Of a stretch of 14,582 nt of DNA, positions 2 to 13,344 are shown in pieces. Made by a program: the position numbers and the translations under genes. Source of the stretch: Patescibacteria group bacterium. GTDB taxonomy: Bacteria; Patescibacteriota; Patescibacteriia; Magasanikbacterales; GWA2-37-8. Position 1 is the first letter of the stretch; each line of letters starts with the position of its first letter. The stretch covers positions 1-14,582 of the forward strand of contig SCQK01000010.1 in the NCBI GenBank assembly GCA_004321885.1, in the 5' to 3' direction. The notes under the pieces were generated by a model, which was not told the DNA's origin, did no database searches, and was given only the letters and a program-made list of their open reading frames with translations.

Positions 2-1564
2 GAAACGATGACAAACAGGAATGCCGGGACCCAGGACCCGGGAACATTGGTGGACGGGTCGTTTGAAATCGGCAGAAGAAATTACGCCTCCGGGTATTAT
101 TATTACACTGGTTCTATTGATGACGCGCGCGTGTATAATCGTGTTCTGTCGGCCAGCGAAATAATGCAACTATACAAAATGGGAGTGGCCAAGGTGGCCA
201 AAACCCCCACGCCGGCCGCCGGAAGCAACTCCCTCAAAACCGGCCTGGTGGGCTGGTGGACTTTTGACGGCGCCGATGTGACGACGAATACCACGACCGA
301 CAAAAGCGGGAACGGGAACAACGGGGCAAGAGGCGTTGGCACAACAGTTGCCACCGGCAAACTGGGACAGGCAATGAAGTTTAACGGCTCCACTGAAAGT
401 ATTTTGGTTACTGATTCGCCATCTTTAAGTATCACGGACAAAATTACTATTTCCGCCTGGGCCAAGTGGACAACCGGCGGTTCTGATTCCGACGCGTATC
501 TTCTAAGTAAAGGAACGGATAAGTATAATTTCCTTATTTATGCCGTGGACGCCGGCAAGATGACTTTTTTGATCAGCGCGTTGTCTCCAAGCACCACTTT
601 AAAAACAGTCGGTGCTTATAACAATAACAAATGGCATCTTTTTACAGGAACATACGACCCTAACGGCGGTACAAACAACATAAAAATATACGTGGATGGC
701 GTATTGGAAAATCAGGCAACTAAAACCGGTTCGCCATCCGACGACGCCAATGGTCTGGGGATAGGCAGATATGGCACTGGCGGGAATTATCGCTGGAATG
801 GCTCCATTGACGACGCCCGCGTGTACAATCGCGTCTTGACGGCTGCCGAAGTAATGCAACTATACAAAATGGGAGTGGCCAAGGTGGCCAAAACCCCCAC
901 TCCGTCCGCCGGCAGTAACTCGCTCAAAACCGGCCTGGTGGGTTGGTGGACAATGGATGGCAGGGATACAACGGCTACCGCCGTGAACGACAAAAGCGGT
1001 TCCGGCAATAATGGCACTCGGACAGGCGGCAAAGTCGCGAGCGGCAAATTGGGACAGGCAATAAAGTTTAATGGAAGCACAGAATACATTACCACGGTTG
1101 ATAGTCCGTTTGATTTTGGCACTGGCAATTTTACAGCCGCGGCCTGGTTCAAAGTCAGCACCCAAGCGGAAGCTAACGCGATTTTAGATAAGTATGGCGC
1201 CGGCGGCGCGGGAGACAAGGGGTGGATTTTGTGGGCTAATTCTACCGGGAACAATAAATTGCTGGGTTTTATTGATAATGGAAGCGTTGATATGACCGGA
1301 GCGACCTCGCTTGTTGTCGGGAGATGGTATCACGCCGCGCTGGTAAGAAATGGCGACATTGGTTATTTGTATTTGAATGGTGTCCAAGACGCAAGTTTAG
1401 GCGGGTTGGCCGCGAGAAATGCTGTTTCTAATGTAGCGATGCAGATTGGCTCAGAAAATGGCAGCGCGACCTATGCTTTTAACGGCTCTATTGACGACGC
1501 CCGCGTCTACAACCGCGCCCTGTCGGCCAGCGAAATAATGCAGTTGTACAAGATGGGGAGATAA
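2..1564 (+). CDS. 5'-partial surface-type protein built of tandem LamG (concanavalin A-like lectin/glucanase) jelly-roll domains
   Basis: ORF 8..1564 is open to the window edge (no stop in frame at 2..7). The product has three copies of the LamG C-terminal strand motif GSIDDARVYNR(V/A)L(S/T)A(S/A)E(I/V)MQLYKMG at about 229-aa spacing. Each copy is preceded by a beta-rich segment (..SGKLGQA(M/I)KFNGSTE.., ..WHLFTGTYD.. / ..WYHAALVRNG..). The first motif lies only about 35 aa into the ORF, so the first domain must begin upstream of the window. Stop is TAA at 1562..1564. Confidence 0.75.
   Translation, partial: ETMTNRNAGTQDPGTLVDGSFEIGRRNYASGYYYYTGSIDDARVYNRVLSASEIMQLYKMGVAKVAKTPTPAAGSNSLKTGLVGWWTFDGADVTTNTTTDKSGNGNNGARGVGTTVATGKLGQAMKFNGSTESILVTDSPSLSITDKITISAWAKWTTGGSDSDAYLLSKGTDKYNFLIYAVDAGKMTFLISALSPSTTLKTVGAYNNNKWHLFTGTYDPNGGTNNIKIYVDGVLENQATKTGSPSDDANGLGIGRYGTGGNYRWNGSIDDARVYNRVLTAAEVMQLYKMGVAKVAKTPTPSAGSNSLKTGLVGWWTMDGRDTTATAVNDKSGSGNNGTRTGGKVASGKLGQAIKFNGSTEYITTVDSPFDFGTGNFTAAAWFKVSTQAEANAILDKYGAGGAGDKGWILWANSTGNNKLLGFIDNGSVDMTGATSLVVGRWYHAALVRNGDIGYLYLNGVQDASLGGLAARNAVSNVAMQIGSENGSATYAFNGSIDDARVYNRALSASEIMQLYKMGR
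110..1564 (+). repeat. Intragenic tandem repeat inside the LamG gene. About 150-nt blocks of high nucleotide identity at 110..262 and 800..952 (period 690 nt). A third partial copy at 1484..1564 (period 684 nt)
   Basis: Direct comparison: ggttctattgatgacgcgcgcgtgtataatcgtgttctgtcggccagcgaaataatgcaactatacaaaatgggagtggccaaggtggccaaaacccccac.. versus ggctccattgacgacgcccgcgtgtacaatcgcgtcttgacggctgccgaagtaatgcaactatacaaaatgggagtggccaaggtggccaaaacccccac... These encode the domain end plus the VAKVAKTPTP(A/S)AGSNSLKTGLVGWWT linker. Confidence 0.8.
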
Positions 1565-1570
1565 GCTATG
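1491..1570 (+). repeat. 80-bp direct repeat, copy 1. Covers the last 25 codons of the LamG gene, its stop, and the RBS plus ATG
   Basis: 1491..1570 matches 2185..2264 at 77 of 80 positions (mismatches at 1512/2206, 1549/2243, 1565/2259). In this copy the terminal ATG (1568) opens only M-L-L-V-stop. Confidence 0.9.
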
Positions 1571-1586
1571 TTACTAGTGTAGTATT

Positions 1587-3904: not shown

Positions 3905-6055
3905 ATGCGTGTCTTGGCAGAAGAAAATTTTGAGAAAGAAGTCAAGGAAAATTTTTTGTTTCAATTTTTCGTTCCCAAAGCCGGCGTTTATTTTATTGAA
4001 ATCAGCGCGTCAGCCAAGAGCTGGTGGCAGAATTTATTAAAGTTTCGTTCGTTTTTTCGCGATGATGATTTGGCTTTAAAAATAGACGAGTCCGGATTTG
4101 ACAAACTTTCCGGCAAACGGGGCATATTTGATGGTGAAGCGGCGTGGAACGGCAACAAGTTGAAGAGTTTGGAGCAAACTATTGTTTTTTTACTGCCGCT
4201 TGGCGCCGGGGCGCACAAAATACAATTTTTTTCCGACCAAAGACCGGTTCTAAAAAAAATTATTGTCTACGAAAGTGGGAGAAATATTTTATATTCGCCG
4301 TCACCCGCGTCGCCGCGGGATGGCAATCGCAGGCCATGGCTGACGTTCGCATTTAAGGACCTTGTGATAAAAAATCTAAAAGTGAAAGCCAAAGCGGACG
4401 CGGACAAAGACGATTCTGATATTAAACTTGTAATTAACGGTCAAGTTGAAAAAAACGAAGAGTCAAAATCGCACCATGGCTGGTATTGGTGCGGCCGTGT
4501 TTTGAAAGGGAAAGCTAAAATTTTTGATAAAAGTTTTAATCGTTCGGAAGGAAGCGCCCGTTTTATTGAATTTTGGACTGATGGAATGCCGTTGTTAGAA
4601 GAGATTAAAATGCGAGTGACGGAAAAGGGGGTTGAAAAAACCGGTCGGGTTGTCGTGCGTAAGGACATTGTCGGTTCGGGATTGTCGGAGGTAAACCTGC
4701 GCGCGGCGGCTGATGAGAATGGCGATATAACCGGGAAGATAAAAACAGGAGAAGAGGTGTTGATAGATGAAATAGCTGTTTCGGGTAGTAATGTGGCGGG
4801 TATGCTGTCAAATAATTGGCATGGAGTTTATTATAATGGAATGAGCGGGTATGTGCACTCTTCTCTCATAGAACTTGCGGGGCAAGAGAGAAAAAGAATT
4901 ACCGATTTTATTCAAACCAAAGCCGGAGAATTGGGGATTGATAAAAATTTAGCCTTGAATTTGGCTTACTGCGAATCAAAGTGGCTACCGTTCGCGATTT
5001 CGGAAACCGGGAATAAAGGCATTTTTGAACTCGGAGGGGATACAATAATTGAGATAAATGGGAAATTAGGCGGTAATATTCGCGACCCTTATGACCCGTG
5101 GCAAAATATTGACGGGGGCCTGAAATATTTGAGGTTTCTTTTAGAGAGATACAAAGACACAGAAAATAGTTTGGAAAAATCCATTACCGCGTGGAGCCGC
5201 GGACCGGACAGAGTGCCGTATAACAAGCCATTTGTTTACGCCGAGCAATCCAGAGGAGCGCAGGCGCTTCTTGATGGCGTTTTGAAATCAAAGGCAGGAG
5301 AGAATATATTAAAAGCACTCGGGGCGCTGGTTGTTTTTTTGATTTTAGGTTTTGGGGCCATTGCCTTCGCCTCAAGCGGCGACAACGCAAGGGAGCGGCT
5401 GTGGTATTTGAAATTGGAGCGCGGAGTTGAGCTTGGACTGGAGCACGCGGCCTGGCTCGTGGACATTGGCGAGGTTGACTTGGCGGACTTTGAAGATGAT
5501 TTTGATTTGGACGGCGAGTTTGAAAAAGTCCAATTTTTTGTTTTCCCCTCAAATGTTGATGACGGGTATTTTACCCGCGTATTTCTTTCGGCGACTGAAT
5601 ATTTTGACGTGGACGGCATATTTATAGAGGGCAAAGGTCTTGATTTAAACGGCGGCGGAGAAAAAGAGCTTTTTGTCAGGACTGTGAAAGATGATATTTT
5701 TAATTTGTATATTTTTAGTTTGCGGGATAAAAAATTGCGTTTGTTTCCAGTGTATGACAACGAGATTACGCGGGAAAATGTAAAGAGCATTAAGTCAAAA
5801 TTTAGAATAGAAAACACACGCACTGGTGATGGAGATGGGAATGAGGCGGTTGCCTTTATAGCCAAACGAGCCAATTATAAGGGAGAATATTGCGATTGGT
5901 ATAACACTTTGGAATATTACGAGTGGAATGGAGTCGGTTTTGAAAAAAGTAGGACAGAAGCAGAGCCGCTTTTTCCGGAGGGTCATTGCGCCGCCCCAAG
6001 CAGTAGACCCGAATTATATGGCCCTGCGCCCACCATACAATGGTCGGTGAATTAA
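3905..6055 (+). CDS. Multidomain protein. N-terminal beta-rich region, then bacterial SH3 (SH3b) domain, then SLT/GH23 lytic transglycosylase domain, then a single TM helix, then an acidic C-terminal domain
   Basis: AGGAGA RBS at 3895. SH3b match: VNLRAAADENGDITGKIKTGEEVLIDE...WHGVYYNGMSGYVHSSLIEL. SLT match: LAYCESKWLPFAISETGNKGIFELGG (catalytic E-S then A.S..G..G motif), DPYDPWQNIDGGLKYLRFLLERY (DP..NI..G..YL motif) and ITAWSRGPDRV (AYNAG-like motif). One hydrophobic helix ILKALGALVVFLILGFGAIAFASS at about residue 470. No N-terminal signal peptide. Confidence 0.8.
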   Translation: MRVLAEENFEKEVKENFLFQFFVPKAGVYFIEISASAKSWWQNLLKFRSFFRDDDLALKIDESGFDKLSGKRGIFDGEAAWNGNKLKSLEQTIVFLLPLGAGAHKIQFFSDQRPVLKKIIVYESGRNILYSPSPASPRDGNRRPWLTFAFKDLVIKNLKVKAKADADKDDSDIKLVINGQVEKNEESKSHHGWYWCGRVLKGKAKIFDKSFNRSEGSARFIEFWTDGMPLLEEIKMRVTEKGVEKTGRVVVRKDIVGSGLSEVNLRAAADENGDITGKIKTGEEVLIDEIAVSGSNVAGMLSNNWHGVYYNGMSGYVHSSLIELAGQERKRITDFIQTKAGELGIDKNLALNLAYCESKWLPFAISETGNKGIFELGGDTIIEINGKLGGNIRDPYDPWQNIDGGLKYLRFLLERYKDTENSLEKSITAWSRGPDRVPYNKPFVYAEQSRGAQALLDGVLKSKAGENILKALGALVVFLILGFGAIAFASSGDNARERLWYLKLERGVELGLEHAAWLVDIGEVDLADFEDDFDLDGEFEKVQFFVFPSNVDDGYFTRVFLSATEYFDVDGIFIEGKGLDLNGGGEKELFVRTVKDDIFNLYIFSLRDKKLRLFPVYDNEITRENVKSIKSKFRIENTRTGDGDGNEAVAFIAKRANYKGEYCDWYNTLEYYEWNGVGFEKSRTEAEPLFPEGHCAAPSSRPELYGPAPTIQWSVN

Positions 6056-6112
6056 AAAATTTTAGGAGATATATGTTAAATATTTTTAACGTAAAAAATC
6101 ATAACGGGAACC

Positions 6113-6191
6113 GCGATACCCCCTCCTCACCTCCCCCTTATAAAGGGGGAGGAGTCGCCGCCGCCGGTAATTCCTCCCCTATAAGGGGAGG
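6113..6191. repeat. Family-1 hairpin elements, two adjacent copies. ATACCCCCTC...CCTCCCCC-TTATAAA-GGGGGAGG at 6113..6152. A shorter CCTCCCC-TATAA-GGGGAGG at 6173..6191
   Basis: Perfect 8-bp stem with 7-nt loop at 6130..6152. The same 23-mer recurs at 8589..8611, and the 5' flank ATACCCCCTC recurs at 8575. Lies in the intergenic region after the 716-aa gene; no T-tract follows. Confidence 0.7.
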
Positions 6192-6270
6192 GACAACCCC
6201 CCACGCCAAAAATTTTGGTGTGGGGGTAAAGGGTGGGGTTAAAACAAATTTCACCAAATATCAGGACCCG

Positions 6271-7101
6271 GAAAAGGGGATGAGCGGCGGCCAGCTCAAA
6301 TGGAGTTTGTGGTTTTCGGGCCGTCGGGTGATTTTTTACCGGGCCGCGCTTATTTTTGTCGCGGCCGCGGCCATAATTATCTGGCTGTTCAGCCTGTGGC
6401 GTTGGGTATTTTTTATCATAGAAATTCCCGATGCCAGGCGCGTGCGCGCCGAGCTCGCCCGCTTTGACGATTATAGCATCATCAATCAACGCATCGGGTT
6501 TCAGCCGGTGCAGATTTTCGGCGCCCAGTTTTTGGCGAGCGGGAAAGACAAATACGACGTCGCGGCCGAGATGTTTAATCCGAACACGCGGTCAGTGGTG
6601 TTTTTTGATTATTATTTTTTTTATAATAATACCTCCACTCCAAAACAATCCGCGTTTTTATTGCCGGGCCAAAGGCGGCCGCTGGTGGCTTTGGGCCTGG
6701 CCGGCGCCGCGGGCGAGCCGGTTTTGCATATAGAAAACGTGAAGTGGAAAAAAATTTCCGCTCACGATGTCAGCGACCCGAAGCAGTATCAGGATTATCG
6801 CCTAAATTTCGCGGTGACGGATTTTGTTTTTTCACCGGCTTCGGAAAGCGGGGCCGATTTTCCGGCCGTGAAATTTAATTTGACCAATAACGGTCCGTAC
6901 AGCTATAATGCCCCCAAGTTTTTGATTGGGCTGACGCAAAATGAGGAGCTGGTGAGCGTTTTTAGGGCGGATTTTGCTTCGTTTGCGTATGGCGAGACAA
7001 AAAATATGGATATTCGGCTGTTTGTTCCGAATGCCTCGGCCGCGGGCGCGATTGTTTATCCGCTCATAAACATTTATGATAAGGAGGCCTATCTGCGATG
7101 A
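6271..7101 (+). CDS. Hypothetical membrane-anchored protein (N-terminal TM, then extracytoplasmic domain). Translationally coupled to the SEDS gene
   Basis: The ORF track gives 6040..7101, but the first 77 codons are low-complexity readthrough of the palindromic repeats. ATG 6271 is preceded by GAAAAGGGG. Product has a TM segment ALIFVAAAAIIIWLFSLWRWVFFII. Stop TGA overlaps the ATG of the next gene (ATGA at 7098). Confidence 0.6.
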   Translation, partial: EKGMSGGQLKWSLWFSGRRVIFYRAALIFVAAAAIIIWLFSLWRWVFFIIEIPDARRVRAELARFDDYSIINQRIGFQPVQIFGAQFLASGKDKYDVAAEMFNPNTRSVVFFDYYFFYNNTSTPKQSAFLLPGQRRPLVALGLAGAAGEPVLHIENVKWKKISAHDVSDPKQYQDYRLNFAVTDFVFSPASESGADFPAVKFNLTNNGPYSYNAPKFLIGLTQNEELVSVFRADFASFAYGETKNMDIRLFVPNASAAGAIVYPLINIYDKEAYLR

Positions 7102-8236: not shown

Positions 8237-8575
8237 ATGTCTTTTAATAAAAAAAGCAAGGGATTTTCCGAGTGGGAGCAGAGCGCGAAGATGCTCGGCA
8301 CCTGTACGGTTTGCGGGCGGGCCTATGGCTCGGGCAAAATGAAAATTCTGAAAAATGAAAAAAAGTCGCGCCTTTTGCACGCGACTTGCGCGTTTTGCAA
8401 CAGTCATTTTATGGCCATGCTGATGAAAATGGGCGGCGGGATGAGCACGATAGGCATGGTGACGGATTTGAGCCTGAATGATTCCAGGCGCCTGCTGGAT
8501 AAAGCGCCGATTACCGTGAATGAAGCCATAGAGGGGTATAAATATATCAATGAAAAGTTTTCACAAGCGAAGTAA
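8237..8575 (+). CDS. Hypothetical small protein with a CxxC...CxxC zinc-ribbon motif
   Basis: Product contains CTVCG and CAFCN 26 residues apart. No family recognised. Confidence 0.5.
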   Translation: MSFNKKSKGFSEWEQSAKMLGTCTVCGRAYGSGKMKILKNEKKSRLLHATCAFCNSHFMAMLMKMGGGMSTIGMVTDLSLNDSRRLLDKAPITVNEAIEGYKYINEKFSQAK

Positions 8576-8624
8576 TACCCCCTCTTGTCCTCCCCCTTAT
8601 AAAGGGGGAGGTTAGGTAGGGGTA
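8575..8624. repeat. Family-1 hairpin element: ATACCCCCTCTTGTCCTCCCCCTTATAAAGGGGGAGG with an imperfect outer stem TACCCCCT/AGGGGTAT
   Basis: The 23-mer core is identical to 6130..6152. Located between the zinc-ribbon gene stop and the rplY RBS. Confidence 0.7.
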
Positions 8625-8630
8625 TATAAT

Positions 8631-9365: not shown

Positions 9366-10301
9366 TTATTTTATAGAAATTATTACCAGCCGATCTCGCC
9401 CCGCGAGGTCGGTTTTGATTTCGCAGGATGAGGCGGGCAGGTATTTTTTTATCAGGGTTTTTATGGCTTCGCTTTGGCGCGGGTCTATTTCCAGGAGTAT
9501 TGTCATTGCGAGGCCGCTTGCGGCCGAAGCAATCCCATCCGTTATGGCAAGGGATTGCTTTGCTCCACTTCGTTCCGTTCGCAATGACAGTTGGGACAAC
9601 AGTTCTTCGTACAGCGACAACCCGTTTATCGCGTCCGCGACCAGCGCGCCCCGCGGCTCTTTTTGGATAGAGGGTTCTTTGCCGTATTGCTCGGCCGTGA
9701 GATAGGGCAGATTGGCGGTGATGATGAGCGAAGAATATTGAATAGAGAATTGAGAATTATGGATAACGGGTTCCAGCAAATTTCCATGCAGAAATTTTAT
9801 TTTTACCCCGTGCTTTTTGGCGTTTTTTTTGGCGACGCGTAGGGCCGCGCGGGAAATGTCTGTGGCGATAAGTTTGATTGACCCCCTCTTAGTCTCCCCC
9901 TTAGGCGCGCTTCGCGCGCGGGAAGCAAGGGGGAGAGAACGAGCGACCGCAATCGGCATGCATCCGCTTCCCGTTCCTACGTCAATCAAAATCGTCTTCT
10001 CTATTCTCAATTCTCTATTCTCAATTCTTCGCACAACCTCCTCCACCATCAATTCGGTTTCGGGCCGGGGGATTAAGACATTTTTGTTCACCAAAAAATC
10101 CAGGCCGTAAAATTCCTTGTGTCCGGTGATGTAGGCGATGGGCCAGCCGCGCTCGCGGAGCCGGCAGTAGTATTTGAACTTCACCCGTTTCCAAAAACTC
10201 GGTTTGTATTCCGGGTGCGCCAAGATAAATTCGCGCGATTTGCCGATAGCGTGCGCTAAAAGAATTTCCGATTTAAGGTTTTCTAAACGTGAAAAAATCA
10301 T
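9366..10301 (-). CDS. prmC: Release factor glutamine methyltransferase PrmC (HemK). Carries two in-frame insertions that coincide with palindromic elements
   Basis: Motifs ..ILIDVGTGSGCMPIAVA.., ..LIITANLPYL.. (NPPY-type) and the C-terminal ..DLAGRDRLV... Extra segments LPLASRARSAPKGETKRGS and TERSGAKQSLAITDGIASAASGLAMT map exactly onto the repeats at 9881..9937 and 9502..9588. Confidence 0.85.
   Translation of the reverse strand: MIFSRLENLKSEILLAHAIGKSREFILAHPEYKPSFWKRVKFKYYCRLRERGWPIAYITGHKEFYGLDFLVNKNVLIPRPETELMVEEVVRRIENRELRIEKTILIDVGTGSGCMPIAVARSLPLASRARSAPKGETKRGSIKLIATDISRAALRVAKKNAKKHGVKIKFLHGNLLEPVIHNSQFSIQYSSLIITANLPYLTAEQYGKEPSIQKEPRGALVADAINGLSLYEELLSQLSLRTERSGAKQSLAITDGIASAASGLAMTILLEIDPRQSEAIKTLIKKYLPASSCEIKTDLAGRDRLVIISIK
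9502..9588. repeat. Family-2 palindromic element: GTCATTGCGAGG, GGCCGCTTGCGGCC, GAAGCAATCCC, loop, GGGATTGCTT, ...CGCAATGAC. Right arm degenerate. Sits in-frame inside prmC
   Basis: Nested inverted repeats read directly. Shares ends and inner arms with the copy at 10886..10978. On the minus strand it encodes ..LSLRTERSGAKQSLAITDGIASAASGLAMT... Confidence 0.75.
9881..9937. repeat. Family-1 related hairpin: ACCCCCTCTTAGTCTCCCCCTT with a 10-bp stem TCTCCCCCTT/AAGGGGGAGA around a GC-palindromic loop GCGCGCTTCGCGCGC. Sits in-frame inside prmC
   Basis: The 5' part matches the family-1 flank ACCCCCTCTT(G/A)T(C)CTCCCCCTT seen at 8577 and 6117. Encodes the PrmC insertion ARSLPLASRARSAPKGETKRGS. Confidence 0.7.
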
Positions 10302-11808
10302 AGCTGTTTAATTCTATCGGATTATTTATATCGCGCCAGCCTTTTTTCCGCAAAGCCGAGGCAATGTCAAGCTCGCCCAGCGCCGGGCTTTGCAAAAGCA
10401 AAAGTTCGTCAAAATTTTTCAGGTTCGCGCTTTCTATCCAACCGTTGATTTCTTTCTCATCGCGATTCCAGCGCCAATAATTTTTCGTTATCACGTCAAA
10501 ATCATAATTGGCGCCAAGGCCCGGGCCCCGATAGGGGACAAGCTGAATCGGGATTTTGATGTAGCGTTCCAAGAGGGGTTTGTCTATAAAATTGCTGTAC
10601 ACCAGCGCCTGTTTTTTGGACGGATTGTAGCGGGCGGAGATTTCTTGGCGCAGGGGCCGCCAGTCATTGAGCGGCAACATTGAGTTTAGTTTTTGCAGAC
10701 CGGGCAGAGAAATAACAACCGTCGCCAAGACCACCCATTGCCAGCGCCCCAGAAATCGCCAGAGCAAAAAAGCCATCAGCAGGATGACCCACGGATAAGC
10801 GGTTTCCACGAATTTGATGTCGTAAAGCCCGAGGGCGTAAGACACGATAAGGGGAAAGAGAATGAGCACGAGGAGGGGAATTACTGTCATTGCGAGGCCT
10901 GAGGCCGAAGCAATCCCTTCCGATAAAGTTTGGGATTGCTTCGTCGTCCGGTCATCCGACCGGACTCCTCGCAATGACAAAACCAAGCCGGCGGCAAATC
11001 CGGCCATGACAAGCAGGCCGAAAGGCCACCAAGCGATACCCGTAAACATTATTTGCATCGGGGTAATGAGTTGTAAAAATTTTGGCGGCACGTGCAAAAA
11101 CCACGCCAGTTGGGCCGTGTCTATATTGAATTTTGAGACAAGAGACGGGATGGCCCACACCAGCCAGAGGCCGGCTGGAGCAAGATTTATTTTAATCCAA
11201 CCCCGCAGCGCCGTTCCGCTGTCATTCCTCCGACTAAGTACTGGGGAATCCAGTATCAATATAATAAACTGGGCCGCGAAAACAAAAAGCGCGGTGAGGT
11301 GGGTGTAGAGGAGCAAGAGGGAAATGAGGGCGTAGAATGTCGCATCCGCCGCTCTTTGAGGACTTAAAAACACTCGTTCAAAATAATCAAAAGATAATAT
11401 TACCAGCAACAAAAATAGCGTGTAGCCGCGCCCGGTGGCCGAAAGCCAAATATGATAAGGAGAAATAGACAGCAGAAGGGCGGAGATAAGGGCTATATTT
11501 TCGTCAAACAACCTTTTGGTCACGCGATAGAGCGCCGCAATGCCCAGCAGTCCGAAAAGCAGGCTGGGCAAGCGCGTAAAAAATTCATTGGCCGGAAAAA
11601 TATAAAACCATAATTTTAGGAACAGCATGTGCAGGGGCGGATTGGTTTCCCATGTCCAAAATTGAATGCTTTGGCCCCATGGTTTTTGGCTGTAGGTGAA
11701 AGAAAATATTTCATCGTGCCAAAAATCGCCGTAGCGCGCCAGAACATACGCGCGCGCGGCCAGCGCGAGAAGCAAGATGATGATAAACAATTTCGCGGCT
11801 TTACGCAT
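10273..11808 (-). CDS. GT-C fold glycosyltransferase of the PMT/ArnT family (GT39/GT83-like), polytopic membrane protein
   Basis: N-terminal TM then the first-loop DE motif (..FWHDEIFSF..), ..[15 protein letters not shown].., about 11 predicted TM segments and a C-terminal soluble domain. Start overlaps the prfA stop by 8 nt; stop overlaps the prmC start by 29 nt. Contains two in-frame palindromic-element insertions. Confidence 0.75.
10886..10978. repeat. Family-2 palindromic element, intact copy. GTCATTGCGAGG, GCCTGAGGC, GAAGCAATCCC, loop, GGGATTGCTTC, TCCGGTCATCCGACCGGA, CCTCGCAATGAC. Sits in-frame inside the GT-C gene
   Basis: Perfect 12-bp terminal inverted repeat plus three internal hairpins. 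Encodes ..[32 protein letters not shown].. in the same relative frame as the prmC copy. Confidence 0.8.
11221..11251. repeat. Family-3 related degenerate hairpin GTCATTCC-TCCGACTAAGTACTG-GGGAATCC inside the GT-C gene
   Basis: Shares GTCATTCC and the CCGACTAAGT core with 12885..12915. Encodes [11 protein letters not shown] in frame. Confidence 0.5.
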
Positions 11809-12862
11809 TGTCTTCTTTTTTTAAAGTTTCAATGATTGGTCCCAAATCGCCTTCCAAAATTGTTTTGATGTTGTTCCAGTTTTGATGAATGCGGTGGTCC
11901 GTAATGCGGTCTTGCGGGAAATTGTAGGTGCGGATTTTCTCGCTGCGGTCGCCGGTGCCGATTTGCCGGCGCCGTTTTTCGGTGATTTCTTTCTGCCGCT
12001 TTTCCATTTCCGCGGCGTGCAGGCGGGCGCGCAAGACTGCCATGGCTTTTTCGCGGTTGGCTGTCTGCGAGCGCTCGTCCTGGCATTGCACTATCATGCC
12101 TGTAGGGATATGCACAATACGCACAGCCGAATAGGTGGTGTTGACGCTTTGGCCTCCGTGGCCCCCGGCTGTCATTGTATCAATGCGCAAATCTTTGGGG
12201 TCTATTTTAAATTCTGTTTCTTCCATTTCGGGCAGGACCGCCACCGTGACAGTGGATGTATGCACGCGCCCTGATTTTTCCGTGTCTGGCACGCGCTGTA
12301 CGCGGTGCACCCCCATCTCATATTTCAAATCCCCGTAAACTCCGCCGGCCGGCGGACCCGCCTCCACGGAAAAAATCACTTCCTTAAAACCGCCGATGCC
12401 GATGCGGTTCGCGTCCATTAAATGGGTTTTCCAACCACGGCTTTCGGCGTAGCGGCTGTATAGGCGAAAGAGTTCGGCCGCGAACAGGGCCGATTCATCG
12501 CCGCCGGCCGCGGCGCGGATTTCCACGATGACGTTTTTTTTGTCAAACGGGTCTTGGGGGCGGAGCAGTTCCTCCAGTTCTTTCAGGAGGCGCGCAATTT
12601 TTTCTTCCAATTCAATCAGCTCGGCTTGGGCCAGCTCGCCCAGCTCGCCTGCCTCTTTTTCGGCCACCAGCCGCGTTTCGGCCAAATTTTTTTCCAGGGT
12701 TTCCAGCTCGCTGATTTTGGCCGCGGCCGGCTTCAAATCATTGTATTCCCGCGCTCTTTCTTTCAATTTTTTTGGGTCGTTAAGCACGGCCGGGCTCTGC
12801 AAATCAGCTTCCAGTTTTTGGAGTTTATTTTTTATTTCTATGTATTTTGAATTCATATTCAT
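11801..12862 (-). CDS. prfA: Peptide chain release factor 1
   Basis: Product contains ..[14 protein letters not shown].. , GGQ motif (..[13 protein letters not shown]..; i.e. GGQ) and the RF1 tripeptide-region ..VEAGPPAGG.../PxT-type region. The ORF track extends to 12889 ([10 protein letters not shown]..), but those codons derive from the tandem GTCATTCCC repeat. Likely start is ATG 12862 or 12856 (..[11 protein letters not shown]..), preceded by GGGAA. Confidence 0.85.
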
Positions 12863-12915
12863 TGTCATTCCCGCTTCCCCCATTGTCATTCCCCCGACTA
12901 AGTCGTGGGAATGAC
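12861..12915. repeat. Family-3 hairpin GTCATTCCC-CCGACTAAGTCG-TGGGAATGAC (12885..12915), preceded by a tandem half-copy CATTGTCATTCCC (12861..12873)
   Basis: 9-bp stem GTCATTCCC/GGGAATGAC with an inner CGAC-TAA-GTCG mini-hairpin. Located at or over the prfA 5' end and RBS. Confidence 0.7.
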
Positions 12916-12925
12916 AGGTGAAATT

Positions 12926-12957
12926 AAAAACAGACCCATTTATTGTAGTCTGTTTTT
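12926..12957 (-). terminator. Rho-independent terminator downstream of rpmE. Symmetric, so could act in either direction
   Basis: AAAAACAGAC, 12-nt loop, GTCTGTTTTT. On the minus strand this reads stem-loop then TTTTT, directly 3' of the rpmE stop. Confidence 0.5.
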
Positions 12958-12971
12958 AGAAAAAATTAAAG

Positions 12972-13292
12972 CTAAGCCTTTGTTTTGTCAGCTTTTTTCG
13001 CGGTTTTCTTTTCCGTTTTGGCTGCGGCCTTTTTCTTCGCCGCGGCCTCTTTCTTCACTTTTTTGCCCTTGCGCCCGGCCGCAATAGCCGCCTTTTTCAC
13101 GGTTCTTTCCTGGAATTTTTCCACGCGGCGGGCCGTGTCCACGAATTTTTGCTTGCCGGTGTAAAACGGATGGCAGTTGCCGCAAAGCTCCACGCGGATG
13201 GCTTTGAGCGTACTGCCGGTGGTAAATTTGTTGCCGCAAGCGCAGGTAACGGCCGTGTCAGTGTGGTATTCGGGATGAATATCTTTTTTCAT
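12972..13292 (-). CDS. rpmE: 50S ribosomal protein L31 with a C-terminal K/A-rich extension
   Basis: [10 protein letters not shown]...CACGNKF...[26 protein letters not shown] is the L31 signature, including the Cys pairs. Confidence 0.9.
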
Positions 13293-13315: not shown

Positions 13316-13344
13316 ATAATAACAAATTATTCAAAAATTGTCAA
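13316..13344 (-). promoter_or_regulatory. Near-consensus sigma70-type promoter for rpmE: TTGACA-N17-TATTAT on the minus strand
   Basis: Reverse complement of 13339..13344 is TTGACA. Reverse complement of 13316..13321 is TATTAT. Spacer 17 nt. About 24 nt upstream of the rpmE ATG. Confidence 0.5.

Follow-up and report, generated by a model that had tools for sequence, protein, structure and literature searches.

Two hairpin repeats of a Patescibacteria contig, one upstream of prfA and one within a glycosyltransferase gene, as probable members of the NTS/SRM class

Contig SCQK01000010.1 is a complete contig of 14,582 nt from an NCBI metagenome-assembled genome (MAG) labelled 'Patescibacteria group bacterium' (locus tags EPN28_); its entire length is referred to here as the window, and all positions are those of the window. 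A short hairpin in the spacer between rpmE and prfA, together with a related sequence inside the adjoining glycosyltransferase (GT) gene, raises the question of whether these sequences control prfA, are remnants of transposons or belong to a wider repeat family. With a probability of about 75%, both loci belong to a single subfamily, with the core CCGACTAAGT, of the dispersed hairpins named NTS or Ssn-related motifs (SRM), and are passengers at both places. This would place a known repeat class in a new host range, with a new subfamily and with in-frame copies of the kind seen in the Rickettsia palindromic elements (RPE); a dedicated switch of prfA is not supported.

The two loci and related elements in the window

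The features under study are the following.

12885..12915, no strand assigned: symmetric 31-nt SRM/NTS-type hairpin (T)GTCATTCCC-CCGACTAAGTCGT-GGGAATGAC(A) in the rpmE-prfA spacer, from sequence and fold
12860..12872, plus strand: solo 5' arm with outer flank, CATTGTCATTCCC, a partial tandem copy of the left end of the hairpin with a period of 21 nt
11221..11253, plus strand: single asymmetric SRM unit GTCATTCCTCCGACTAAGTACTGGGGAATCCAG with the NTS-type 3' tail GGGAATCCAG, encoding GT residues 186-196 on the minus strand

The perfect 9-bp stem that the initial annotation placed at 12885..12915 is present, with the arms GTCATTCCC (12885-12893) and GGGAATGAC (12907-12915), and is extended to 10 bp by the pair T12884/A12916. 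The spacer, previously given as 12 nt, has 13 nt (CCGACTAAGTCGT) and contains an inner 4-bp stem CGAC/GTCG with a TAA loop. As RNA the hairpin has a folding energy of -21.4 kcal/mol (z about -5; none of 200 shuffles was equally stable), and as single-stranded DNA (ssDNA) values of -12.9 and -14.9 kcal/mol are predicted for the two strands (z about -6). The sequence TGTCATTCCC is displayed on both strands. A single substitution, G to T at 12906, separates the prfA copy from the symmetric family consensus GTCATTCCCCCGACTAAGTCGGGGGAATGAC; symmetric copies are identical in the contigs L004, L005, L008, L009, L011 and L030.

The tandem half-copy reported beside the hairpin also exists, one base away from its reported position (12860-12872 rather than 12861..12873). 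Exact copies of CATTGTCATTCCC occur twice (12860-12872 and 12881-12893), as compared with 0.02 expected. On the minus strand, which is that of prfA, the solo arm has the sequence GGGAATGACAATG and extends over positions -4 to -16 relative to the ATG at 12856. An older NTS split by nested insertion of the hairpin was considered as the source of the half-copy and rejected, as no matching 3' arm follows position 12915.

The GT copy is identical to the prfA copy in 18 of the first 19 nt, and no such match was obtained in shuffled sequences even with three mismatches allowed; both sequences belong to the same repeat family. It comprises 11 codons and is read in frame, as had been proposed. In an alignment of 20 sequences 18 of the 19 aligned homologues lack the segment (about 9 extra residues). 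The AlphaFold model of the GT has a mean predicted local distance difference test (pLDDT) score of 88 and a predicted template modelling score of 0.89, and only two segments fall below a pLDDT of 50. The first of these, residues 189-192, lies within the loop 188-196 between the helices 173-187 and 197-226 and coincides with the GT copy; the second, residues 286-300, corresponds to the in-frame repeat at 10886-10978. The segment of the GT copy is a genuine insertion, which keeps the reading frame and falls in a loop between helices. Compared with the consensus of L001, L025 and L026 it has two substitutions (11229 C to T and 11242 G to T), one synonymous and one changing Gly to Arg relative to the peptide of L001 and L025; both weaken the stem, and the copy has lost the fold of the family hairpin (z -0.3 to -1.3).

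The same GT loop is occupied in a homologue, P0006 of contig L014, by an SRM-type unit DSSPASRRAQND (10575-10612; reverse complement GTCATTCTGAGCCCGCCGGCTGGCGGGCGAAGAATC). This unit lies two codons from the insertion point in the window, in equal orientation and frame, and is an independent insertion because its stem is different. The shared position suggests that the loop is permissive or a hot spot of insertion.

All three hairpin families of the window had been described as sharing GTCATT...AATGAC termini, which was taken as a sign of one superfamily of miniature elements with inverted repeats. Three independent pairs of these termini occur within 122 nt of each other (9502-9588, 10886-10978 and 12885-12915), whereas the maximum in 1000 dinucleotide shuffles was one pair and 92.5% of the shuffles had none, so that the common termini are far above chance. 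The superfamily is a fair description of elements which already carry the name NTS or Ssn-related motifs (PMC11893778). The two larger elements are composites.

9502..9588, no strand assigned: composite GTCATTGCGAGG...CGCAATGAC, in frame in prmC, made of two inverted GTC-ATT-stem-AAT-C units
10886..10978, no strand assigned: composite GTCATTGCGAGG...CTCGCAATGAC, in frame in the GT gene (residues 278-308), with 17 extra amino acids compared with all homologues

Occurrence beyond the contig and relation to NTS/SRM units

Sequence collections amounting to 596 Gb were scanned with the pattern GTCATTCCNCCGACTAAGT, which specifies the left arm and the loop only. About 10-20 chance matches to an 18-base pattern are expected at this size, and the evidence lies in the unspecified 3' arm, not in the count. 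The scan delivered 28 loci, 13 in GTDB species representatives and 15 in metagenomes, and no copy in viral contigs. In 24 of the 28, which represent about 21 distinct loci, the complementary arm (A)CGGGGGAAT is present with CCAG or GAC after it; L006, L010, L019 and L022 lack this arm. Carriers include eight contigs of the Patescibacteria MAG JAHJCN01, a Magasanikiibacteriota MAG, another Patescibacteria MAG, several contigs from Hainich groundwater and two bins labelled Gammaproteobacteria. Two forms occur, a symmetric one of 31 nt ending in GGGAATGAC (prfA type) and an asymmetric one ending in GGGAATCCAG (GT type). In most cases the asymmetric unit makes up the left half of a 70-90-nt composite and has a second, inverted unit as its right-hand partner. 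Elements of 87-93 nt and the 31-nt hairpin family co-occur in other contigs as well.

Copies of the subfamily are also found in frame in other contigs, namely in genes for RluD-like, Tgt, MiaA, UvrD and Wzy_C proteins. The MiaA copy carries the same 11-residue peptide, and the peptides recurring in the set of GT, MiaA, RluD-like, Tgt, UvrD and Wzy_C include VIPPTKYGGI. Translated by hand, the consensus unit is free of stop codons in four of six frames, two of which are used by the observed peptides. Two different in-frame SRM-derived segments per gene were noticed in L026 (UvrD-like open reading frame, ORF) and L027 (Wzy_C ORF); those of L026 are VIPAQAGIQ, the translation of canonical NTS, and VIPPTKYGGIQSGEPLDSCFRRND. 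A literature search on palindromic or in-frame repeats and repeat-encoded peptides in bacteria of the candidate phyla radiation (CPR) returned nothing relevant.

Target-site duplications (TSD) are absent from 24 of 25 GTCAT...ATGAC elements, and the termini of all 25 are TGTCAT...ATGACA. A solo 5' arm stands 20-39 nt upstream of a full unit at six loci, one case being upstream of an ssn gene; L012, L013, L031 and L038 show the layout of the window. Tandem stutter copies of the outer arm with a few flanking bases (period 19-39 nt) adjoin full SRM units in L012, L013, L031, L036 (2289-2380), L038 (892-960) and the window (12864-12885), in part right beside ssn genes. Such stuttered arms lie on the side of SsnA cleavage and are not described in the passages on Ssn available from PMC11893778.

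The class to which these features point has been described by Chenal et al. (Nat Commun 2025, PMC11893778). There NTS is given as CGTCATTCCCGCGMAVGCGGGAATCYRG, which contains dRS3, ATTCCC-N8-GGGAAT, and the wider SRM class is given by the degenerate pattern HGTCWYN(0-2)YYVSBRHN(0-5)WNVSBRGN(0-2)RNCYNB. SsnA, a GIY-YIG protein of 94 amino acids, binds the NTS hairpin in its single-stranded form only, and its cut lies a few nt upstream; GTC before the palindrome matters for cleavage and C after the palindrome for binding. The ssn genes are often bordered by inverted NTS units, and a Wolbachia Ssn homologue tested in vitro, like that of Neisseria, binds and cuts such ssDNA units (PMC11893778).

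An exact match to the SRM pattern is given by the subfamily consensus TGTCATTCCCCCGACTAAGT(A)CGGGGGAATCCAG (17 loci, 21 hits). One substitution would bring the GT copy into agreement with the pattern, and two to three would be needed for the prfA copy. The window copies share GTCATTCC(C) with NTS, and the GT copy also GGGAATCCAG; the core CCGACTAAGT... is 5-6 nt longer than in NTS. The partner unit in composites is frequently a canonical NTS (GTCATTCCCGCGAAGGCGGGAATCCAG in L031, CTGGATTCCCGCCTTCGTGGGAATGAC in L017), and the canonical NTS TGTCATTCCCGCGAAGGCGGGAATCCAG occurs in L031 and L032. The GTCATTGCGAG family of the window stands further apart, 4-5 substitutions being needed to fit the SRM pattern; what would link it to Ssn are the GTCATT terminus, the composite architecture and the co-occurrence. 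Repeats of the GTCATTGCGAG type, which we take to be associated with GIY-YIG genes, were not seen at the five ssn loci examined.

At these five loci, which belong to five phyla, each Ssn-type GIY-YIG gene has an NTS-type unit upstream. An inverted unit downstream is recognisable in four of them (L032, Omnitrophota, bacterium SM23_31 and Margulisbacteria), and the Ignavibacteriales locus (L035) has only a partial copy on the same strand at this side. A GIY-YIG seed sequence was about 80% identical to real proteins, among them P0067, which is annotated as Candidatus Paceibacterota. The gene of this ssn homologue (contig L032, 1265-1555) separates ruvB from ruvC; an NTS-like unit lies just upstream of it (1231-1258, plus strand) and a canonical inverted NTS just downstream (1558-1583, minus strand). 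Because this homologue has inverted NTS units on either side, an ssn gene with NTS units exists in CPR bacteria.

Several observations weigh against the assignment to this class as passengers spread by Ssn. An exact match to the strict NTS, dRS3 or SRM patterns is absent from both window copies; strict NTS CGTCATTCCCGCGMAVGCGGGAATCYRG is missed even with one mismatch allowed, and the arms correspond to ATTCCC-N13-GGGAAT in the prfA copy and ATTCCT-N14-GGGAAT in the GT copy. In N. meningitidis, binding by SsnA depends most on the C after the palindrome (PMC11893778), and the symmetric prfA copy has G rather than C directly after its palindrome; it may be a poor Ssn substrate because G replaces the critical C. 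No GIY-YIG or ssn gene was detected in the 14.6-kb window or in L001-L031 by regular expressions and phmmer with three seeds. Mobility of NTS/SRM units through Ssn is put forward in the source paper as a hypothesis only (PMC11893778). An effect of the element on prfA expression, for example through mRNA stability or through a promoter or Shine-Dalgarno (SD) sequence built by it, is a speculative counterpoint.

If both loci do belong to the NTS/SRM class, their forms could be arranged as follows. The unit of the class would be (T)GTC-ATTCCC-stem/loop-GGGAAT-C(CAG), and the full element in Patescibacteria a composite of 70-90 nt with two inverted units. The GT copy would represent a single unit, half of a composite, and the prfA copy a collapsed, symmetric form in which the outer GTCATT terminus is retained on each side; the 31-nt form could have been derived from the composite through recombination between the two near-palindromic cores. 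Copies would spread to intergenic spacers and would be kept in tolerant loops of housekeeping proteins when the number of nucleotides is divisible by three and the frame is free of stop codons. Accommodated in this manner, the prfA copy would be a passenger in the 5' leader, and the GT copy a passenger adding a disordered loop of 11 residues. We infer that in this organism the copies are acted on by an Ssn nuclease, and that their spread is due to Ssn activity.

That an active Ssn/SRM system shapes coding sequences in Patescibacteria is a more tentative idea, which we regard as doubtful. SRM units would then be mobilised or copied via ssDNA intermediates, would repeatedly colonise permissive loops in essential genes, such as the one occupied in the GT of both the window and L014, and would leave stuttered solo arms at the side of the Ssn cut; through the motifs, incoming ssDNA could also be marked or restricted, as in Neisseria. 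Dependence on DNA uptake is assumed for CPR bacteria. If the idea were true, it would amount to a genome-wide code for self/non-self distinction or recombination control in a phylum with none known.

The start of prfA, rival explanations and the gene neighbourhood

The longest ORF of prfA runs from 12889 and has an N-terminal extension, which had been attributed to the repeat and called artificial. The deposited protein TAN33248.1 (351 aa) begins at 12856, and the N-termini of orthologues (MLKKY..., MLQKY...) align with the Met at this position. As both deposited protein and orthologues start at 12856, the extended N-terminus is an ORF artefact caused by ATGs within the repeat. The hairpin ends 28 nt upstream of this ATG, and the start region is unpaired in a fold of 136 nt. 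The proposed overlap of the hairpin with the ribosome-binding site of prfA does not hold with this start, as only the solo half-copy lies in that region. In L014 and L016, which are syntenic, the spacer between rpmE and prfA holds unrelated palindromes and lacks this hairpin; conserved control of prfA translation, or a dedicated regulatory role, therefore appears unlikely, and the modulation of translation initiation suggested earlier is not supported.

The rival that survives best, while still improbable, is that the repeat has been co-opted for signals of prfA, either as a weak promoter giving a leaderless mRNA or through the half-copy as SD sequence. Two copies of AATGACAAT form a promoter-like ATGACA-17-GACAAT (12889..12861; 9 of 12 positions) with a start site near the ATG at 12856, and the conserved rpmE terminator hairpin leaves just about 70 nt for a prfA promoter. 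The half-copy also puts GGGA 6 nt ahead of the ATG at 12862 (GGGA-N6-ATG), and Correia repeats of Neisseria are known to build promoters (PMC10969869). The promoter match is nevertheless weak, with only 4 of 6 positions in the -10 element, and is among the weakest of five hits in the 900 nt scanned, where 1.2 were expected. The use of SD sequences in the contig is inconsistent, and prfA might equally be transcribed by read-through from rpmE, which has a strong promoter (11 of 12 positions, 13344..13316).

Slightly less likely still is a dedicated cis-regulator of prfA, acting in translation or as an attenuator by masking the SD sequence and the start codon. In its favour, the prfA leader contains a stable RNA hairpin of -21 kcal/mol whose 3' arm GGGGGAAUGAC holds an SD-like run and AUGs, and the half-copy covers -4 to -16 of the true start. 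This is opposed by the position of the start at 12856, beyond the hairpin and unpaired, by the other palindromes in the syntenic relatives and by the identical hairpins in unrelated contexts across many contigs. The hairpin is followed by AAUGGGGG on the minus strand and by AGGUGAAA on the plus strand; no U-tract is present, a terminator scan made no call, and the reading as an intrinsic terminator was rejected. A scan of the whole window with Rfam covariance models (E up to 1) gave no match at 11221-12915.

Classical miniature inverted-repeat transposable elements (MITE), that is, non-autonomous derivatives of DDE insertion sequences with terminal inverted repeats that are moved by a transposase in trans, are a very improbable explanation. 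Inverted termini, small size, multiple copies and nested or composite structures agree with it; the repeat unit is, however, a single hairpin of 31-33 nt, no transposase was found in the window or the loci, and the only gene seen between inverted units is the GIY-YIG gene ssn. The T...A bounds and the missing TSDs (24 of 25 elements) argue against a DDE-type MITE and are compatible with an ssDNA-hairpin mechanism analogous to REP/RAYT; the classical MITE was rejected for lack of TSDs. A chance likeness of the two window loci is already refuted and has a negligible probability: a 9-mer with at most one mismatch is not rare (8 observed against 3.1 expected, with 4 of 200 shuffles reaching 8), chance matches to the 18-base pattern are expected in the collections and four of the 28 lack the 3' arm, but the 19-mer is never found in shuffles with up to three mismatches and 24 external matches bear the unspecified arm.

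The genes around the repeats form a row on the minus strand, and all four are supported by Pfam. The order rpmE-prfA-GT-prmC is also found in the Magasanikbacteria contigs L014 and L016.

13292..12972, minus strand: rpmE, from Pfam
12926..12957, minus strand: terminator-like hairpin of rpmE, AAAAACAGAC-N12-GTCTGTTTTT, from a fold of 12840-12975
11801..12856, minus strand: prfA (RF1), true coding sequence of 351 aa starting with MNSKY, with PCRF and RF-1 domains, an exact match to TAN33248.1 and the orthologue alignment
10273..11808, minus strand: GT-C / PMT_2 family 39 (GT39) glycosyltransferase, hosting the in-frame repeats at 11221-11253 and 10886-10978
10301..9366, minus strand: prmC, from Pfam

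The terminator-like hairpin (cagac...gtctgttttt) is kept after rpmE in L014 and L016 and borders the spacer that bears the repeat.

Further repeats were noticed in the window. Compared with the orthologues of L014 and L016, prmC has at least two in-frame repeat insertions specific to the window; one (about 9881-9945) encodes PLASRARSAPKGET and comes from a CCCCCTCTTAGTCTCCCCCTTAGG...GGGGGAGAG palindrome, and another, from the GTCATTGCGAGG composite, encodes SLRTERSGAKQSLAITDGIASAASGLAM. Part of the methyltransferase domain of prmC is bracketed by an inverted repeat of 38 nt (ATTCTCAATTCTC..., 9720-9757/10003-10040). A separate palindrome family, ATACCCCCTC..CTCCCCCTTATAAAGGGGGAGG..GGGGTAT, occurs at 6116-6196 and 8575-8625 and is devoid of GTCATT termini; one copy of the ATACCCCCTC family encodes PSSPPPYKGGG close to the N-terminus of the ORF 6040-7101, and another lies directly upstream of the L25 start and contributes GGGGGAGG and TATATAAT. 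Tandem repeats of about 690 nt lie within a Laminin_G-like (LamG-type) ORF at 8-1564, and an 80-nt copy of the 3' end of this repeat, 96% identical (IDDARVYNRALSASEIMQLYKMG), is located 690 nt further downstream at about 2185-2264.

Comparison with known systems

The assignment gives a name and a biochemically tested partner, Ssn, to mystery hairpins and to the peptides LDSP..RGND and VIPP..GGI that recur in CPR gene calls. It would extend the NTS/SRM class to Patescibacteria, with units that can persist in frame within essential genes in the manner of RPE. It also warns of artefactual N-terminal extensions, prfA being the example, and of repeat-derived loops that inflate the divergence of CPR proteins. 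If Ssn is active there, the assignment is relevant to the control of incoming DNA by ultra-small bacteria that depend on uptake.

The resemblance to RPE is a functional one only. Like RPE, the repeats are palindromes in frame within unrelated housekeeping genes, with a conserved peptide and in tolerant surface loops (PMC10969869), as seen here from the GT loop insertion compared with orthologues and from the peptide that recurs in MiaA, RluD-like, Tgt, UvrD and Wzy_C. RPE measure about 100-150 bp, whereas the units here have 31-33 nt and the composites 70-90 nt. RPE and SRM may overlap, since Rickettsia is named among the SRM-rich genera in PMC11893778.

REP/BIME elements and their RAYT enzymes (IS200/IS605-like Y1) are comparable in their short hairpins recognised as ssDNA, the absence of TSDs, the mosaic arrays and the inverted pairs on either side of the gene for an enzyme acting on the repeats; the analogy is drawn by the Ssn authors themselves (PMC11893778). 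The enzyme differs (GIY-YIG versus HUH/Y1), as does the conserved 5' motif (GTCAT versus GTAG).

The dRS3/NIME repeats of pathogenic Neisseria share the ATTCCC/GGGAAT arms and likewise are dispersed hairpins, often in arrays with partial copies; their spacer has 8 nt as opposed to 13-14 nt here, and the GT copy has ATTCCT. In Neisseria dRS3 serves as a target of phage integration (PMC11893778).

Closest are the NTS/SRM units. The core here is CCGACTAAGT(A)CGG (N13-N14) instead of GCG-MAV-GCG (N8), the prfA copy is fully symmetric and has no C after the palindrome, and the contig has no ssn; Patescibacteria hosts go unmentioned, and in-frame copies in housekeeping genes undescribed, in PMC11893778. 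Common to both are the 5' GTC directly before an ATTCCC...GGGAAT palindrome and, in the asymmetric form, the 3' tail C-CAG. The consensus is an exact SRM match, its units are paired with canonical NTS, TSDs are absent, and in a CPR genome ssn itself stands between inverted NTS units.

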